Position numbers and translations under genes: made by a program. The notes beneath the pieces were generated by a model. That model was not told the DNA's origin. It did not search any database and saw only the letters and a list, made by a program, of their open reading frames with translations. A stretch of DNA of 64,000 nucleotides from Armatimonadota bacterium (GTDB lineage: Bacteria; Armatimonadota; UBA5829; DTLH01), in assembly GCA_039680575.1 (NCBI GenBank), contig JBDKSP010000020.1, forward strand, positions 9,238 to 73,237. Direction: 5' to 3'. The number at the start of each line of letters is the position of its first letter. The stretch's first letter is position 1. Of the stretch, positions 124 to 64,000 are shown in pieces.

Positions 124-340
124 GCAAGAGTTCAGAGTTGATGAGTATAACATCATGCTGAACGAACACAACGTCATGCTGAGCTTGACTCAGCATCCAG
201 GAAAAAAATGGACCCTGAATCAAGTTCAGGGTGACGTGCTTCTATCCATGATGACGTGCTGGTTGTTCAGGGTGACGTGCTGGTTGTTAAGGGTGACGTG
301 CTTCCATCCATGATGACGTGTTGGTTATTCAGGTTGATGT
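124..340 (+). repeat. Family A double-hairpin miniature repeat, copy 1, with a tandem tail of six 20-21 bp units
   Basis: gcaagagttcagagttgatgag...gtcatgctgagcttgactcagcatccagg...gaccctgaatcaagttcagggtgacg recurs at 3568, 44827, 54625(-) and 63833; tgacgtg anchor at 232, 252, 273, 294, 314 and (degenerate) 335. Confidence 0.9.
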
Positions 341-3567: not shown

Positions 3568-3741
3568 GCAAGAGTTCAGAGTTGATGAGTATAGCATCAG
3601 CTGAACGAACACTACGTCATGCTGAGCTTGACTCAGCATCCAGGAAGAAAATGGACCCTGAATCTATGGATTATCGGCTATAGCCGAAAATCTTCCGGGG
3701 AGAGTTTCAGGGTGACGTGCTTGTCGTTTAGGGTGACGTCT
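3568..3741 (+). repeat. Family A repeat copy 2, carrying a family D segment in its second hairpin
   Basis: Near-identical to 124-240 except for tatggattatcggctatagccgaaaatcttccggggag at about 3665-3702. Confidence 0.9.
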
Positions 3742-4123: not shown

Positions 4124-6688
4124 TCATTCCGTCTTTGTTCCCCGGACAGCGCCCAGGCAGTATCTGGACGGGTTGAAATAGCGTATACTTGTGTTCAATA
4201 TATCCTCCGGCGTAACACGGCTGATACCGGCCAGATAATTGCTGGTCCCATCAATCCCGAGGCCATAAATTTCGTTTGCGGCTCGTTCTCTCGCGCGAGC
4301 GACGGATGTTTGCATTGAAATCAGTTTCACACCTTTCATATAGCTCTTGGCATTGGCGATTTCATCAGGATCAGCGGGTTCGGTCTTCAGCTTTTGAAAT
4401 TCGGAAAAAACAGCTTCTCTGGCGAGTATCTCATTATCCGGCGAAGTAGCCGTGTAGATGATAAATATCCCCCCGGCAGCTCCCGAATGACTGGCGGCGG
4501 ATACGACATAAGCGAGGCCGAGCCGCCCCCTGACCTCCGCGAAGAGCCTGCCGCCGAGCCCTGAACAGAGCGCTGCGATGACATCGAGTGAATACCTCGC
4601 GGGATCGGTTGTGGTGACTCCAGGGAAACCGAGCGCAACGGCTGTCTGAGCACGGTCTCTTTCGGCCGCGAGTTCCTTTATCTCGTTTGGGAAGACCGTA
4701 AGCGCCGGTCCGCAGCCGGGATGACGTTCGCCAAGGCGCTGGAACAGGTTTTCCACTGCTTTTGCAGCGCTGTCTATATGGATATTGCCGACAATGGACA
4801 CAACGGCGATAGCTGGGACACAGATCGATTTGTGCCACTCAGCGACCTGCTCTCTCGTGAGCCCGGCGATAGTATTATCCCTGCCGTAATCAGGAAGGCC
4901 GTACGGATGATTCGGGAAAGCTACTTCGGCCAGAAGGTCGGACGCATATCCGAAAGAGGAGTCCTGGAGCCTGCGTATGTCAGCTCTAAGAGCTTCTTTC
5001 TCTTTGTCTACCTCTTCTTCGTGGAAGGCCGGATCGGCGATGACATCCGACAGCAATTCGAACCCTTCTTCGAAGTTCTTCGAAAGCACCCTCAGACTGT
5101 AACCGCAGAAATCGGAGCTGTTGGTGATGCTGATAAACGTTCCTAGATTCTCTATCCGTTGTGCGAGTTCTTCAGATGAATACCGGGAGGTGCCTTTGAG
5201 GGAGGCTCTGAGCGCCAGCTCGGTTATGCCAGCGTTTTCCGGGTTTTCGCAAGACCTTCCGCCTTTGAAGTACACGACTACACCGACAACGGGGTTGTTT
5301 TGATCGACTTCCGCGATAAGAGTTGCCCCGCTTGGCAGGATAGCTTTTGTGATATTGCCGTCAGCGGAAACCGCGGTAAGCGGGAGTGTCCCGGGCACAT
5401 GCAGGACGGCATGAGATGATTTTTCTTCAAGTTCCTCTGTGGTGTATTCCGGCAGCTCGACGCTTTCAGGCATGTATTCGAGAATGGTAGCGCGGTCTAT
5501 GGTCAAATATTTCGCGGCAACCCTTGCTACATCGATGGCATCGACTTTTCTCAATCGGTCCACAAATTCATCCGACATTCGCCAGTCACCAAGCGCTTCG
5601 AAGTAAGCCAGACGGTTAGCCCGACCGAGAACCTGTTCCTGTTCGAAGAACAAATCGCTCTCGATGATATTTTTTATCTTTTCGAGTTCTACTCTTCTGA
5701 TAGGTTCTTTCTTTAGCTTCTCTATTTCCTCGAAGAATGAGACGGCCAACCGGCTTGGGTCATCCGTAAGGAGTTCGGATGATACCGTAACGACCCCTAT
5801 GTCCTTATATGCGCTGTAGAATGAACCGATGCTGCTGACGATCTGCTTCTGCTCCATAATCGACTGGTAAAGCCTGGAGCTTCTTCCTTCACCGAGAATA
5901 TCTATAGCCACCGAAAGCGGATAATAGTCGCTATCGAGTATTTTGGGGGCTTGAAACCCGATCTGGACGAGTTTTTGCTTTATATCACCCTTGAGGCGCA
6001 GGTATTTGAGCTTGGTCTGCTCGTATTCTTCCGGTGACGGGTTCTCGACTGAGTTTCTCATCGGGATTTCCGAGTACAGCTTATCTATCAACTGCAGCGC
6101 CGCTCCTGACTCAACTCCGCCGACGACCGAGATAATGATATTACCGGGCGTATACCTCTCCCGGTGATAACGTAGAAGATCGTCCCTGGTCATATTTCTG
6201 AGCTGGTCAGGGTAGCCGATCCGCCAGCGGCGTATCCTGTGCCTGTCGAATGCCCGTTCCCACATTTTTTCAAGTGAGAATGCGGACGGATTGTCGCGTT
6301 TTTGTTTGGCTTCCTGGATTACGACTTCGATCTCTTTCGAGAGTTCATCAGGATCGATTAGGAGATCAGATAAAGCGTCGAACTGTATGTCGAGTGTCTG
6401 CTCGAAATTCTCTGCCGGGGCAGTGACATAGAAAGTGGTAGACTCGTATCCTGTACCGGCGTTCAGCACCCCGCCCAGGGCTTTCGTCTCACGTGCTATG
6501 TCCTCCGGTCCCGGCCTGCGGCTAGTTCCCTTGAAGAACATGTGCTCGAAGACATGAGAGATGCCCATTTGGTCATCCGGTTCATTGAAGTATCCGGTGT
6601 TCACATGGGTCACTATGGCGACTACGGGGCTCCCCGGGCGCTCTTCGATAAGAATGGTTAGTCCATTGTCAAGAACCTGCTTAACCAC
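4124..6688 (-). CDS. M16 (pitrilysin/insulinase) zinc peptidase, two-module form
   Basis: HVFEH (HxxEH) in the N-terminal module; second module lacks the zinc motif. Confidence 0.92.
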   Translation of the reverse strand: MVKQVLDNGLTILIEERPGSPVVAIVTHVNTGYFNEPDDQMGISHVFEHMFFKGTSRRPGPEDIARETKALGGVLNAGTGYESTTFYVTAPAENFEQTLDIQFDALSDLLIDPDELSKEIEVVIQEAKQKRDNPSAFSLEKMWERAFDRHRIRRWRIGYPDQLRNMTRDDLLRYHRERYTPGNIIISVVGGVESGAALQLIDKLYSEIPMRNSVENPSPEEYEQTKLKYLRLKGDIKQKLVQIGFQAPKILDSDYYPLSVAIDILGEGRSSRLYQSIMEQKQIVSSIGSFYSAYKDIGVVTVSSELLTDDPSRLAVSFFEEIEKLKKEPIRRVELEKIKNIIESDLFFEQEQVLGRANRLAYFEALGDWRMSDEFVDRLRKVDAIDVARVAAKYLTIDRATILEYMPESVELPEYTTEELEEKSSHAVLHVPGTLPLTAVSADGNITKAILPSGATLIAEVDQNNPVVGVVVYFKGGRSCENPENAGITELALRASLKGTSRYSSEELAQRIENLGTFISITNSSDFCGYSLRVLSKNFEEGFELLSDVIADPAFHEEEVDKEKEALRADIRRLQDSSFGYASDLLAEVAFPNHPYGLPDYGRDNTIAGLTREQVAEWHKSICVPAIAVVSIVGNIHIDSAAKAVENLFQRLGERHPGCGPALTVFPNEIKELAAERDRAQTAVALGFPGVTTTDPARYSLDVIAALCSGLGGRLFAEVRGRLGLAYVVSAASHSGAAGGIFIIYTATSPDNEILAREAVFSEFQKLKTEPADPDEIANAKSYMKGVKLISMQTSVARARERAANEIYGLGIDGTSNYLAGISRVTPEDILNTSIRYFNPSRYCLGAVRGTKTE

Positions 6689-40852: not shown

Positions 40853-40885
40853 TGCCAGTTTCCTTTCCCCTAATATTTACCTAAT

Positions 40886-40948
40886 GAGTTTCAGGTATCG
40901 CCTGAAACTCTCCCGGAAGATTTTCTGCTATCGCCGAAAATCTATGAG
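40886..40948 (-). repeat. Family D double-hairpin element overlapping the selB 3' end
   Basis: Minus strand atagattttcggcgatagcagaaaatcttccgggagagtttcaggcgatacctgaaactc matches 63930-63990. Confidence 0.85.
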
Positions 40949-42918: not shown

Positions 42919-43180
42919 TCGTGCTTCGGGATGTTATCACGAAGCATATGAGATTCCTCCTACCCTATCCCTCGGGCAGTATTTGAAATACTGCCCGGGC
43001 TGGCCAAAGAGGGATCTGTGATCCCGATCAATCAACTATAATCAATCTCCCGACATCAGAGATGCCTCGTTTGCCTTTCCGGGAGGAATTGCAAATCCCT
43101 CCCGAGTTGGTTGCAGACCGGCCACTACTTCTATTTCCTGATTTCTTATGCTTCGAGATTTTTTCATCCCGAAGCACGAG
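42919..43180. repeat. Composite repeat: family B palindromes flanking a family C hairpin doublet
   Basis: B at about 42920-42956 and 43148-43179; C 42971-43106 is the reverse complement of 53420-53562. Confidence 0.85.
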
Positions 43181-43219
43181 TCTCCACCAAACCCGTTCCT
43201 AAATCCTGAATCCTAACTC

Positions 43220-44812: not shown

Positions 44813-44826
44813 TTATTAAAAATCAT

Positions 44827-44940
44827 AAGAGCTCTGAGTTGACGAACACTACGTCATGCTGAGCTTGACTCAGCATCCAGGAGGAAAATGGACCCTGAAT
44901 CAAGTTCAGGGTGACGTCTTTGTTGTTCAGGTTGGTGTGT
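44827..44940 (+). repeat. Family A repeat copy 3 (internal deletion), between selA and selD
   Basis: gtcatgctgagcttgactcagcatccaggaggaaaatggaccctgaatcaagttcagggtgacg. Confidence 0.9.
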
Positions 44941-51421: not shown

Positions 51422-52186
51422 ATGTCGAAAGTTGATGTGATTATAATGGCCGGAGCGCCTGCTGACCCGGATATGTGTGCTCCCGGCGAGAAAATAAGTC
51501 GAGCGATGATTAATATCGCCGGTAAAACTATGATCCAGTGGATTATGGACGCGCTGAACAGCTCAGAGACCATTTGTCGAAAGATCGCAGTAGGCGATGT
51601 CGCGGCTGACGGACTGGATGAGGTTGTAAAACCAGGTTCAGGATTTCTGGATAATCTTATGCTTGGACTGGAACGATGCCAGGGAGCTGACCGCGTGCTG
51701 GTGATGACATCCGATATACCGATGCTCACGCCCGAAGCCGTGGATGATTATGTAAACCGTGCAATAGACTCCGGCGGCGATATGTGTTACCCGATTGTTA
51801 CCCAAAAAGCCTGTCTTGAAAAATACCCTCACATGAAACGGACGTATCTCAAGACGGCTGAAGGGATGTTCACAGGCGGGAATATGATGATCCTCGGCAC
51901 CGAGTTCCTCAAGCGAAACCAGGGGCTCATTACCGAGGCCTATAATGCGCGGAAAAACCCGGTGAAACTGGCATCCATGATCGGGTTGGGGTTCCTGTTC
52001 AGATTAGTCCTCGCTCAGGTGTTGGCTCCGTCCTTGTTGCCTATTCCGATGCTGGAAAAGTCTCTGTCAAAAGCACTGAAATGCAAAATAGTCGCCATAC
52101 GGACTGATTACCCTGAAATCGGAGCCGATGTGGATAAACCGTCCGATCTGGCGGAGGTACAGACAGTGCTTAGTGATAGGGGATAG
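51422..52186 (+). CDS. MobA-like NTP transferase domain protein
   Basis: IIMAG, TSDIP, DVDKPSDL. Confidence 0.8.
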   Translation: MSKVDVIIMAGAPADPDMCAPGEKISRAMINIAGKTMIQWIMDALNSSETICRKIAVGDVAADGLDEVVKPGSGFLDNLMLGLERCQGADRVLVMTSDIPMLTPEAVDDYVNRAIDSGGDMCYPIVTQKACLEKYPHMKRTYLKTAEGMFTGGNMMILGTEFLKRNQGLITEAYNARKNPVKLASMIGLGFLFRLVLAQVLAPSLLPIPMLEKSLSKALKCKIVAIRTDYPEIGADVDKPSDLAEVQTVLSDRG

Positions 52187-52224
52187 GGAACAGAATCTCA
52201 TATGCTTGTATGGTTTGAAGTATG

Positions 52225-52410
52225 GTAACTCAAGAAGTTATGATTGAGATACCGGGGTGGAGGGGCTAGCTATGCTTCTGCGTCCTCTGACAAGGACGAC
52301 AGCGTCCCGAAGACATCCCCCACCTCCATATAAGCGTCAATTGGAATATTGCGGCTCCTAGTGGAGACCGACTATCACGCAAGCAAACGCTCGTGGAGAT
52401 CCACCCCGAA
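52225..52410 (+). ncRNA. Predicted bridge RNA (boundaries approximate)
   Basis: tatgcttc (52271-52278) equals the left target; gtcccgaag (52304-52312) is the reverse complement of the right target; they flank the hairpin cgtcct-ctgaca-aggacg; second loop has imperfect donor matches. Confidence 0.75.
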
Positions 52411-52432
52411 CTACAAGCGAGGTAATTATAGC

Positions 52433-53356
52433 ATGAAGTTCTATGGAGTGGATGTAAGCAAGGATACCCTAGACATCTGTAGCGATGCCAAGATAGTGCA
52501 GATCGGTAATGACAAGAAGTCTATCAGGTCCTTTCTTAAGAGTGTATCTTCCGGCAGCGTGGTGGCAATGGAGTCGACCAATAAGTATCATCTGGTGATG
52601 GCAGATTTATGTTATGCGGCTGGGATGAAGGTGTATGTGGTGAATCCTCGCATGACTCGCCACTACCGGGAAGCTCTGAATCTGCGCGGTCATACTGACA
52701 GGCTGGATGCAAAGACGATTAGCTCGTATATTAAGCATCATCACGATGATCTGCGTCCTTATGTGCCTAAGTCCACCGACCAGCGGAGACTGCAGGGCAT
52801 AATCCGCAGGAGAGCGAAGCTCGTAGCAGTCAAAGTGCAACTGCACCAAAGCATGCAGGAAATCAAGGAACTCAAGAGTGATCTGGATGCTGTGCTAAAA
52901 CGTATAGATAAGATGCTGGTTCAGATCGATGTGCTCATAGACAAGCAATTGGAAGGTAACGTAGGTCGTGATCGGCTTGCAACAATAACAAGTGTAGGCC
53001 CAGTAGTGAGCGCGGCTCTGGTTGCCGATTTGGATGCAGGGGAGTTTGTAAGCGCTGATGCCTTTGTTGCATTCTATGGACTTGACCCGGTGCCCAATGA
53101 CTCCGGCAAGTCCAGGGGCAAAAGGAAGATCAGCAAGAAAGGCCATAGACTTGGTAGGACCCTGCTCTATGTCTCCGCACTGTCGGCAGCCAGCTCAAAA
53201 GCCTGGAAGCCAGTATACGAGCACATACTCGCAAAGGGCCTCACGCGGGTGTAGGCATTGGTTTGCCTTGCCCGCAAGATAGCCCGAACTGCCTGGTCGG
53301 TATATACACATAAGACAGTGTTTGAGGCAGAAAGACTACTTGTGGGCTTGACATAA
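52433..53356 (+). pseudogene. IS110 recombinase with premature in-frame TAG at 53252-53254
   Basis: GVDVSK, MESTNKY, HTDRLDA, DSGKSRG; after TAG the frame continues ALVCLARKIARTAW...GLT-TAA. Confidence 0.88.
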
Positions 53357-53368
53357 AGCATAGAATCT

Positions 53369-53620
53369 TCGGGACCGTAGTTCGTCCCGAAGCACACTCT
53401 CCACTAATCTATCCCCTTGCTCGGTAGGGATTTGCAATCCCTGCCGGAGAGGCAAGTGAGGCATCTGTGATGCCGGATATGCAAGATTAGATTGCTATTA
53501 CACATCCGGGATCAGAGATCCCTCTTATGTCAGTCCGGGCTGCATTGCAAATACAGCCCGAGTAGGGGGAACAGAAGAAATAGTGGATGTTTTCTTCCCG
53601 AAGCACGAATTTCCACTAAT
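53369..53620. repeat. Composite repeat: split family B palindrome, family C doublet and family B half-copy
   Basis: Family C part is an inverted homolog of 42971-43106. Confidence 0.85.
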
Positions 53621-53665
53621 CCCATCTGATGGCTGAATACTGATTACTGAAAGCTTGCCAATTCA

Positions 53666-53694
53666 TTGTATCAGTTGACATTGCTTGCTATAAT
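53666..53694 (+). promoter_or_regulatory. Putative sigma70 promoter of the fumarase/sdh genes
   Basis: TTGTAT-17 bp-TATAAT with extended -10 TG. Confidence 0.6.
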
Positions 53695-53757
53695 ACATCT
53701 GGCTGGCGGGCGGCGTTGCCCGTGTAAGCGCCCGAGGCCGCAACTTGAGGGTATAAT

Positions 53758-54600: not shown

Positions 54601-54624
54601 GGAACAGGTGATAGGGAACAGAAT

Positions 54625-54862
54625 CACGTCACCCTGAGCTTGACTCAGAGTCCATTTTCTTCCTGGATGCTGAATCAAGTTCAGCATGACGTATTCTCTT
54701 TGCTTCGGACTGCTTGCTCTCGCATCATCTAAAGTTTCAGTCAATTGTGACTGAAACTCTCCGAAGAATTTTCGGCTATGGCCGAAAATCCATAGATGAT
54801 GCTTCGGGACCGCAGTTCGTCCAACCCCGTGGACCTACCGGACCACGGGGAGAAGCACGACG
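54625..54862. repeat. Repeat cluster: family A(-), family D(-), and family B interrupted by palindrome E
   Basis: A 54625-54693; D 54733-54795; B 54800-54860 with insert 54823-54851. Confidence 0.85.
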
Positions 54863-63832: not shown

Positions 63833-63991
63833 GCAAGAGTTCAGAATTGATGAGTATAGCATCATGCTGAATTATCACAACGTCATGATGAGCTTGACTC
63901 AGCATCCAGGAAGAAAATGGACCCTGAATCTATGGATTATCGGCTATAGCCGATAATCTTCCGGGAGAGTTTCAGGTAATACCTGAAACTC
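63833..63991 (+). repeat. Family A repeat copy 5 joined to a complete family D element
   Basis: Matches 3568-3710, then gagagttcagg-taata-cctgaaactc. Confidence 0.9.
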
Positions 63992-64000
63992 CTTAGTTCA

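Follow-up and report, generated by a model that had tools for sequence, protein, structure and literature searches.

The window, i.e., the whole 64,000-nucleotide stretch of DNA analyzed here, carries on its plus strand (52207 to 53368) an IS110 element of 1,162 bp, including its right CT core, that very probably moves by bridge-RNA-guided recombination into a palindromic repeat of its host. It is a member of the IS110 group that works like IS621, but its RNA is not of the IS621 type. The mechanism, including the targeting of REPs, is already known from IS621 (PMC11208160, PMC11208158) and ISPpu10 (10.64898/2026.03.19.712850). As both systems already target REPs by bridge RNA, REP targeting alone is not new here. 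The preliminary description had suggested a new ortholog with readable specificity: the specificity can indeed be read, since the guides covary with their targets, but the novelty does not extend to the targeting. The distinguishing features are the replacement of a conserved G by C in the RNA together with an Asp in the protein, a closing helix, and a bulged left donor guide. None of these had been recorded in that description, nor had the complementarity of the handshake bases.

Boundaries of the element and anatomy of its predicted RNA

The element is bounded by CT cores at 52205-52206 (left) and 53367-53368 (right), as first described, and its ends are conserved in orthologues. Excision of 52207-53368 restores, without a scar, an intact palindrome, atgCTTCGGGAC-loop-GTCCCGAAGcac, and this empty site fits the family B palindromes of the host, as had been proposed. 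The left target (52198-52206; positions 1-9, TCATATGCT) ends in the left CT and forms the left part of this REP-like palindrome, while the right target and the rest of the palindrome, with its conserved tail, occupy 53369-53408. A nucleotidyltransferase-like gene lies on one side of the element and a fumarate hydratase gene on the other. The left end is 226 nt long and carries the predicted RNA; the right end extends only about 12 nt past the stop codon.

The right end (53348-53368) contains a -35 box, TTGACA (53348-53353), and the left donor ATAGAATCT (53360-53368) with the right CT core. The left end starts (52207-52214) with the right donor TGTAT (52207-52211), overlapping a -10-like box, TATGGT (52209-52214). 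Joining of the ends yields the circle junction ATAGAATCTTGTAT, which is identical at 12 of 14 positions to the IS621 donor as drawn in PMC11208158 (Suppl. Figs 2 and 4), in agreement with the resemblance noted earlier. Excision to a circle would thus bring TTGACA and TATGGT to a distance of 17 nt, followed by the RNA's 5′ stem-loop. By analogy with IS621, the resulting promoter, predicted from sequence and with similar boxes among the 29 orthologous junctions compared, would drive a left-end RNA of about 190 nt. A sigma-70 scan of the linear locus gave four weak sites versus 1.9 expected.

In IS621, each guide begins seven bases after a flipped-out A, a conserved syn-G is found at +5, and a pair of handshake bases comes after each right guide (PMC11208158). 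The left end of the element fits this register for all four guides and both handshake dinucleotides (all features on the plus strand). The predicted RNA begins with a 5′ stem-loop (52224-52253; pair probability 0.9-1.0 for 9 of 10 pairs), followed by the 5′ strand of a terminal helix (52253-52261), which overlaps the target-binding loop's outer stem and ends in the flipped-A equivalent, 52261. From this A the register, together with covariation, places the left target guide AGCTATGCT at 52268-52276, matching target positions 4-9 and mismatching 1-3. The inner hairpin of the target-binding loop (52278-52302) has a bulged A at 52299, from which the right target guide CCCGAAG (52306-52312) is reached; it matches CTTCGGG at 7/7 positions and is followed by the handshake AC (52313-52314), which pairs with donor position 7 and mismatches at 6. 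In all, the match between guides and site at the window copy covers target positions 4-14 only.

In the donor-binding loop, the left donor guide (52340-52348; register from A52333) is bulged and reads AU, U, GGAAU, followed by A at core position 8, a mismatch shared with the intact orthologue L009. It is followed by the inner hairpin (52352-52370; bulged A 52367). The right donor guide (52374-52383; register from A52367) is discontinuous, AU-CAC-GCAAG, with a CAC bulge in the IS621 pattern, and the handshake CA (52384-52385) that completes this feature is complementary to target positions 6-7. At 52400-52408 lies the terminal helix's 3′ strand, which pairs with 52253-52261 and would close a three-way junction.

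All motifs of the preliminary description were found in place: TATGCTTC at 52271, GTCCCGAAG at 52304, AGCGT at 52333 with ACGCT at 52387, TGGAATAT at 52342, ACGCAAG at 52377, and the hairpin. Its target-binding-loop layout agrees with the IS621 register and with the covariation reported below, and its donor-loop stem and hairpin are present, with donor-guide covariation in orthologues. The extent of the target guides was revised. By register, the left guide is not the motif at 52271 itself but AGCTATGCT, and the right guide is 7 nt rather than 9 nt long, the two extra bases of GTCCCGAAG falling in linker positions. Folding of 52245-52432 gave z = -2.8, with 0 of 200 shuffles equally good, and both target guides occurred in order in 40 of 200,000 Markov-resampled left ends. 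No Rfam family matched: a scan of 52100-53700 gave two chance hits far below the gathering score.

The host palindrome, copies of the element, and a premature stop codon

The family B palindrome occurs, by a strict pattern, in 79 copies in the 2.97-Mb genome versus none in each of three shuffles, and most copies carry TATG ahead of one arm and either CGTG or TGTG ahead of the other. The sequence TATGCTTCGGG occurs 62 times versus about 1.4 expected, in 44 cases with the second palindrome arm. Genome-wide, the full 14-nt site specified by the guides is never matched exactly and is matched four times with one mismatch. Five right ends are found in the genome. Four of them (contigs C20, C24, C29, and C81) run into the palindrome at the same CT and in the same orientation, C81 starting with 98/98 identical bases and C24 and C29 being partial relics; the fifth, in C76, belongs to a 77% identical sister located outside the palindrome, with the flank CTTCGGC. 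Thus, the expectation that other copies would share the target is borne out by all right ends except that of C76. In another metagenome, the intact, 85% identical L009 is inserted in the same palindrome.

We propose that the first loop of the RNA pairs with nnnTATGCT/TCGGG, the TATG arm of the palindrome, and the second with the circle junction, and that the handshake dinucleotides would favor strand exchange at the CT core. As the guide addresses the host palindrome, the element would land in intergenic repeats and spare genes. The choice of target might in addition depend on a DNA hairpin, as in the dual match of ISPpu10, the palindrome stem-loop raising efficiency; this would add to the bridge-RNA explanation rather than replace it. 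The empty site does fold into a hairpin (z = -3.8) whose 5′ arm contains the CT, and in many orthologues the insertion point is the 5′ foot of a hairpin (e.g., L009, L011, L015, L022-L025, L029, L037, and L049), in line with the stem-loop effect reported for ISPpu10 (10.64898/2026.03.19.712850). In contrast, the sites of L003, L038, L039, and L041 have no such hairpin (z of 0.3 to 1.1), and the ISPpu10 hairpin lies on the 5′ side but here it is on the 3′ side. Moreover, 44 of the 62 guide-matching genome sites are already in palindromes, so that the location of insertions is expected from sequence alone. We regard a contribution of the hairpin as possible but somewhat less than probable.

Other repeats of the same genome were noted in passing. 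Further palindromic families form mosaic intergenic elements with family B (window positions 157-340, 3568-3739, 40881-40945, 42971-43194, 44825-44938, 53420-53655, 54603-54858, and 63833-63996). The same 100-bp sequence ends contigs C27, C29, C39, C43, C46, C65, C89, C103, and C108 of G000, marking another multi-copy element, collapsed in the assembly and unrelated to this one. Two Y1 tyrosine transposase genes that most resemble RAYTs are located at G000 C71:68987-69313 (L098) and C33:9642-9848 (L096); as partial queries they best match NF047646, below its cut-off. No link between the palindrome and these genes emerged: both genes have other inverted repeats around them, and a single family B copy lies about 490 bp away from one of the genes (genome 97% complete). 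The repeats around the L098 gene are inverted GTAG-type palindromes (GTAGTGGCCG), distinct from family B.

The recombinase gene (52433-53356, plus strand) is a pseudogene of 307 codons with a premature TAG at 53252-53254 (codon 274). The remaining 273-amino-acid part matches Pfam PF01548 and PF02371, as well as NCBIfam NF033542 above its cut-off, and D7, E47, D89, D92, and S224 are all intact, with D218 at the position of IS621 T235. By sequence, its only relatives in the PDB are IS621 and ISCro4. Homologues number 181 at E <= 1e-30; the 119 listed besides the protein itself have a median length of 309 amino acids, the best of these being 87% identical and intact, and one at 61% identity is labeled Armatimonadota. 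The compact 307-residue ortholog described earlier therefore exists as intact orthologues of up to 87% identity, and small size is a trait of the clade; the window copy itself lacks a full-length open reading frame.

A model of the intact orthologue P0002 (pLDDT 87.7) superimposes on IS621 and ISCro4 chains with TM scores of 0.85-0.87 at 23-25% identity. On this model the stop deletes helix 272-293 along with residues equivalent to IS621 R300, V309, F316, and R320, which are labeled in PMC11208158 (Suppl. Fig. 2c,d). That figure depicts how the flipped A and syn-G are recognized; the assignment of labels to panels is our reading of the text layer of that figure. As the last helix of the Tnp domain and the equivalents of these labeled residues are removed, the truncated recombinase is probably inactive, and the copy probably non-autonomous.

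Contig depths from DNA run X1, which possibly derives from the source sample, indicated a depth of 70 for the element body versus 32 for the flank; sequence shared between copies begins at 52201, and the contig over the stop has a depth of 94 with no alternative letters. The depth ratio, the invariant stop, and the shared start together indicate about two copies with the same TATGCT junction and the same stop, which suggests that the element was copied after its inactivation. Runs X2, X4, and X5 had small shares and were excluded as evidence. Such copying would most likely have been done in trans, by an intact sister recombinase. Continued autonomy of the copy, through TAG read-through or a sufficient 273-residue protein, is improbable. 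Such autonomy would agree with the roughly two stop-bearing copies, with the 98/98 nt of C81 that equal the sequence downstream of the stop, and with guides and promoter boxes that look intact. It is opposed by the nature of the lost residues, among which R281 is conserved in 136 of 150 representatives, and by the presence of diverged sisters in the genome or sample (C76 and a 1,113-nt contig) that could provide the protein.

No second left end was detected in the assembly by nhmmer or short BLAST. Covariance model R1 matched only the window locus in its own genome and, among 53 genomes of the class, gave matches in four including its own, with no solo RNA in the genomes searched. The 1,113-nt contig (X1 record 3; a single-copy depth of 33), absent from the assembly, aligns with 52238-52328 and from 52400 onward and has a different left target guide; it represents either a donor-loop deletion or a diverged sister. 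As the latter may apply, we did not accept a target-loop-only RNA on the basis of this contig, which skips 52329-52399.

Several loci bear traces of related insertions. In G000 C23 (minus, offset 79848) and C71 (minus, offset 25236), TATGCT is followed by TGTATG and then the palindrome interior, a junction with a deletion that is probably the scar of a former insertion; a short tandem duplication would look alike. A truncated sister left end at L097:92-160 (G000 C93, ~5990-6060) comprises the junction and 5′ stem-loop as well as the start of the G-rich strand; its flank is TTTGAATGCT, and it lies upstream of an unrelated exported-protein gene. G047 has three left ends of one orthologue, L102, L104, and L105, of which one is inserted at a guide-matching site, another at a poorly matching one, and a further one has its junction deleted; L102 and L104 are apparently interrupted or cut downstream. 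In G303, a 56% identical orthologue is present twice (L003 and L007); both copies share their 9-nt left target and their 9-nt right target, and their right end exceeds that of most clade members by about 190 nt.

Covariation of guides with targets in orthologues

The loci gathered were 80 from metagenomes, 6 from genomes, and 8 from a search of 401 genomes of the phylum. The alignment comprises 33 left ends whose loci have about 36% identity or more and allowed anchors to be placed; the duplicates L007, L016, L026, L028, and L089 and several unparsed or later-added loci were left out. Comparison of each left guide with its own insertion site gave matches at positions 1-7 in 13, 14, 24, 29, 26, 27, and 28 of 31 loci (L012 and L041 dropped). 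Right guides matched at positions 10-16 in 29, 26, 26, 27, 27, 12, and 9 of 29 (L010, L014, L035, and L093 dropped). These counts point to a working specificity of about positions 3-14, with loose distal left positions, and thus to the combination of a loose distal left and a strict right guide described for ISPpu10 (10.64898/2026.03.19.712850). A 9-nt right guide as a trait of the clade finds no support in the counts at positions 15-16, and is possible only for the subgroup of the window copy. The right target of L019 is matched at only 2 of 5 positions.

The 27 loci with both guides were collapsed to seven guide groups for a permutation test. Own pairs matched at 67.8 of 84 positions versus 26.5 (sd 4.1) for permuted pairs, and none of 20,000 permutations scored as high. 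The first handshake base of the donor loop is Watson-Crick complementary to target position 7 in 29 of 31 loci, and the second to position 6 in 12 of 31. The left donor guide likewise tracks the donor, GGGAT occurring with AGGAT in 12 loci and GGAAC with AGAAC in 3; at core position 8 this guide has A in 2 and C in 27 of 33. The helices of the RNA covary, with 96% of cells paired and 49 both-side changes versus 14 in shuffled alignments, a count inflated by relatives.

Thus, the bridge-RNA reading and target specificity of the preliminary description are upheld by the covariation of guides with targets and of donor guides with donors, the handshake complementarity, and the other right ends in the same palindrome. 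That the left-end matches are instead DNA features, i.e., captured target DNA or protein-binding sites, with the protein alone reading the palindrome, is hardly credible: the palindromic target does account for part of the match and no direct transcript of the window copy was seen, but the guides vary with unrelated targets over the seven groups, at a fixed register inside covarying helices, and the handshake base follows target position 7.

Evidence for expression of the predicted bridge RNA is weak: RNA run X3 contained one contig, of depth 15.6, from a relative of about 94% identity over 52263-52388. As library adapter flanks this contig on either side, it does not define RNA ends and may represent one molecule. 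One exact piece of the open reading frame was present at a depth of 3.5, and the second RNA run contained nothing matching the element. Among the contigs listed for the sequencing runs, none spans the circle junction.

Features that set the clade apart

The recombinases of the clade are 305-310 residues long, versus 326 for IS621, with which they share about 24% identity. In the 33 clade RNAs, the four positions equivalent to the syn-G are occupied by C in 32, 28, 32, and 33 cases (125/132); the window copy has C at three of them and G at the G72 equivalent. The flipped-A equivalent is A at 132 of 132 parsed sites, the DBL1 site having been located by its purine-first pattern. The residue six before the catalytic Ser, aligned with IS621 T235, is Asp in all 32 clade loci that include it, whereas 37 distant loci (27-33% identity) have Ala or Asn, never Asp, and their RNAs have G at the syn-G position in 32 of 32 cases where the first donor site was parsed. 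In a quick tree, one branch (SH-aLRT 100) separates 39 clade rows from 29 distant rows. As this split amounts to a single evolutionary event, the coupling of C in the RNA to Asp in the protein is hypothetical, even though the four RNA sites changed in concert.

The terminal helix, formed by the strand before the first flipped A and the strand after the donor loop, has at least 7 Watson-Crick pairs in 31 of 33 loci versus 0 of 33 for a downstream control window. As the alignment ends are partly anchored on its strand, we rechecked it with fixed windows; 11 of 13 clade loci not in the alignment had 8 or more pairs, as did 4 of 38 distant loci. Its sequence differs among subgroups, with 29 both-side changes versus 14 shuffled; its covarying pairs number 4, equal to the shuffled mean. 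The helix overlaps the outer stem of the target loop, and one column covaries in both pairings. In the window RNA its predicted pair probability is close to 1, and removal of its 3′ strand lets the outer stem form instead. Since both folds keep the guide loops, the helix is more likely a clamp that defines the 3′ end than an on-off switch. The distant G-type or unparsed left ends of L055 (~90-270) and L092 have 9- to 10-bp end-to-end helices of their own, and such closing helices may have arisen more than once. Finally, the left donor guide has one or two extra bases after AU in 33 of 33 loci and is not a continuous 8-nt guide.

We tentatively propose, with rather more doubt than confidence, that the clade represents a second class of bridge systems, orthogonal to the first. 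The change of a pocket Thr, Ala, or Asn to Asp and the four-fold change of G to C would let its RNAs load only onto its own recombinases and not onto those of IS621 or ISCro4, with the same exclusion in the other direction. The terminal helix, in competition with the outer target-loop stem, would clamp both loops in one three-way junction and set RNA maturation or activity. If so, compact recombinases of about 305 residues could be used beside IS621-type enzymes without cross-talk, and the pair would provide a direct test of RNA reading by the Tnp domain.

Compared with IS621 and ISCro4 (IS622) (PMC11208160, PMC11208158, 10.1101/2025.05.14.653916), the element has the same RuvC-DEDD plus Tnp-Ser protein and fold, the CT core, a predicted left-end RNA composed of a 5′ stem-loop and loops for target and donor, the A+7 register, handshake guides, a predicted junction promoter, a discontinuous right donor guide with G-T wobble, a donor identical at 12 of 14 positions, and a REP-type target. 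It differs in the C that takes the place of the syn-G (G48, G72, G121, G155) five bases after each flipped A, in the Asp at the T235 position, in the terminal helix that joins both loops in a three-way junction, in the left donor guide bulge, and, for the window copy, in the premature stop. ISPpu10 likewise belongs to the IS110 group, is guided to a multi-copy REP, and is reported to act in trans (10.64898/2026.03.19.712850). Its REP and host are different, and a 5′ hairpin serves as its structural gate, whereas in the present element the right target forms the hairpin's 5′ arm. Pseudomonas IS110 loci gathered for comparison are about 30% identical and of the G type. IS1111 or seekRNA elements share the protein domains and RNA-guided targeting, some with multi-loop RNAs (PMC11208160), but have their RNA in the right end and long sub-terminal inverted repeats, unlike the left-end RNA and short right end found here.

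Guides have been predicted for 32,190 bridge RNAs with 86 models, many structures deviating from IS621 (10.64898/2026.10.21.760802), and this collection may already contain the clade. The tree table of PMC11208160 has a row for an Armatimonadota protein with similar Tnp motifs; in the searched parts of its supplement, the clade donor or 5′ strand was not found as a natural sequence. The three clade features were not described in the literature searched, chiefly outside subscription journals, for a bridge RNA three-way junction, IS110 and REP in Armatimonads, or IS110 T235; the accessible portions of PMC13626964, 10.64898/2026.08.31.748434, and 10.1101/2025.10.25.684509 were also included. Among 72,556 plasmid records, no listed match exceeded about 30% identity.

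The window copy opens the way to a large and distant branch of bridge recombinases, in which 145 of the top 150 representatives (clusters at 50% identity) have the Asp, and natural guides and targets can be read for about 30 members of the clade. The coupled change of G to C and Thr to Asp offers a sharp and cheap test of RNA recognition and may yield an orthogonal editing pair. The palindrome represents a further host repeat colonized through guide reprogramming within one lineage.
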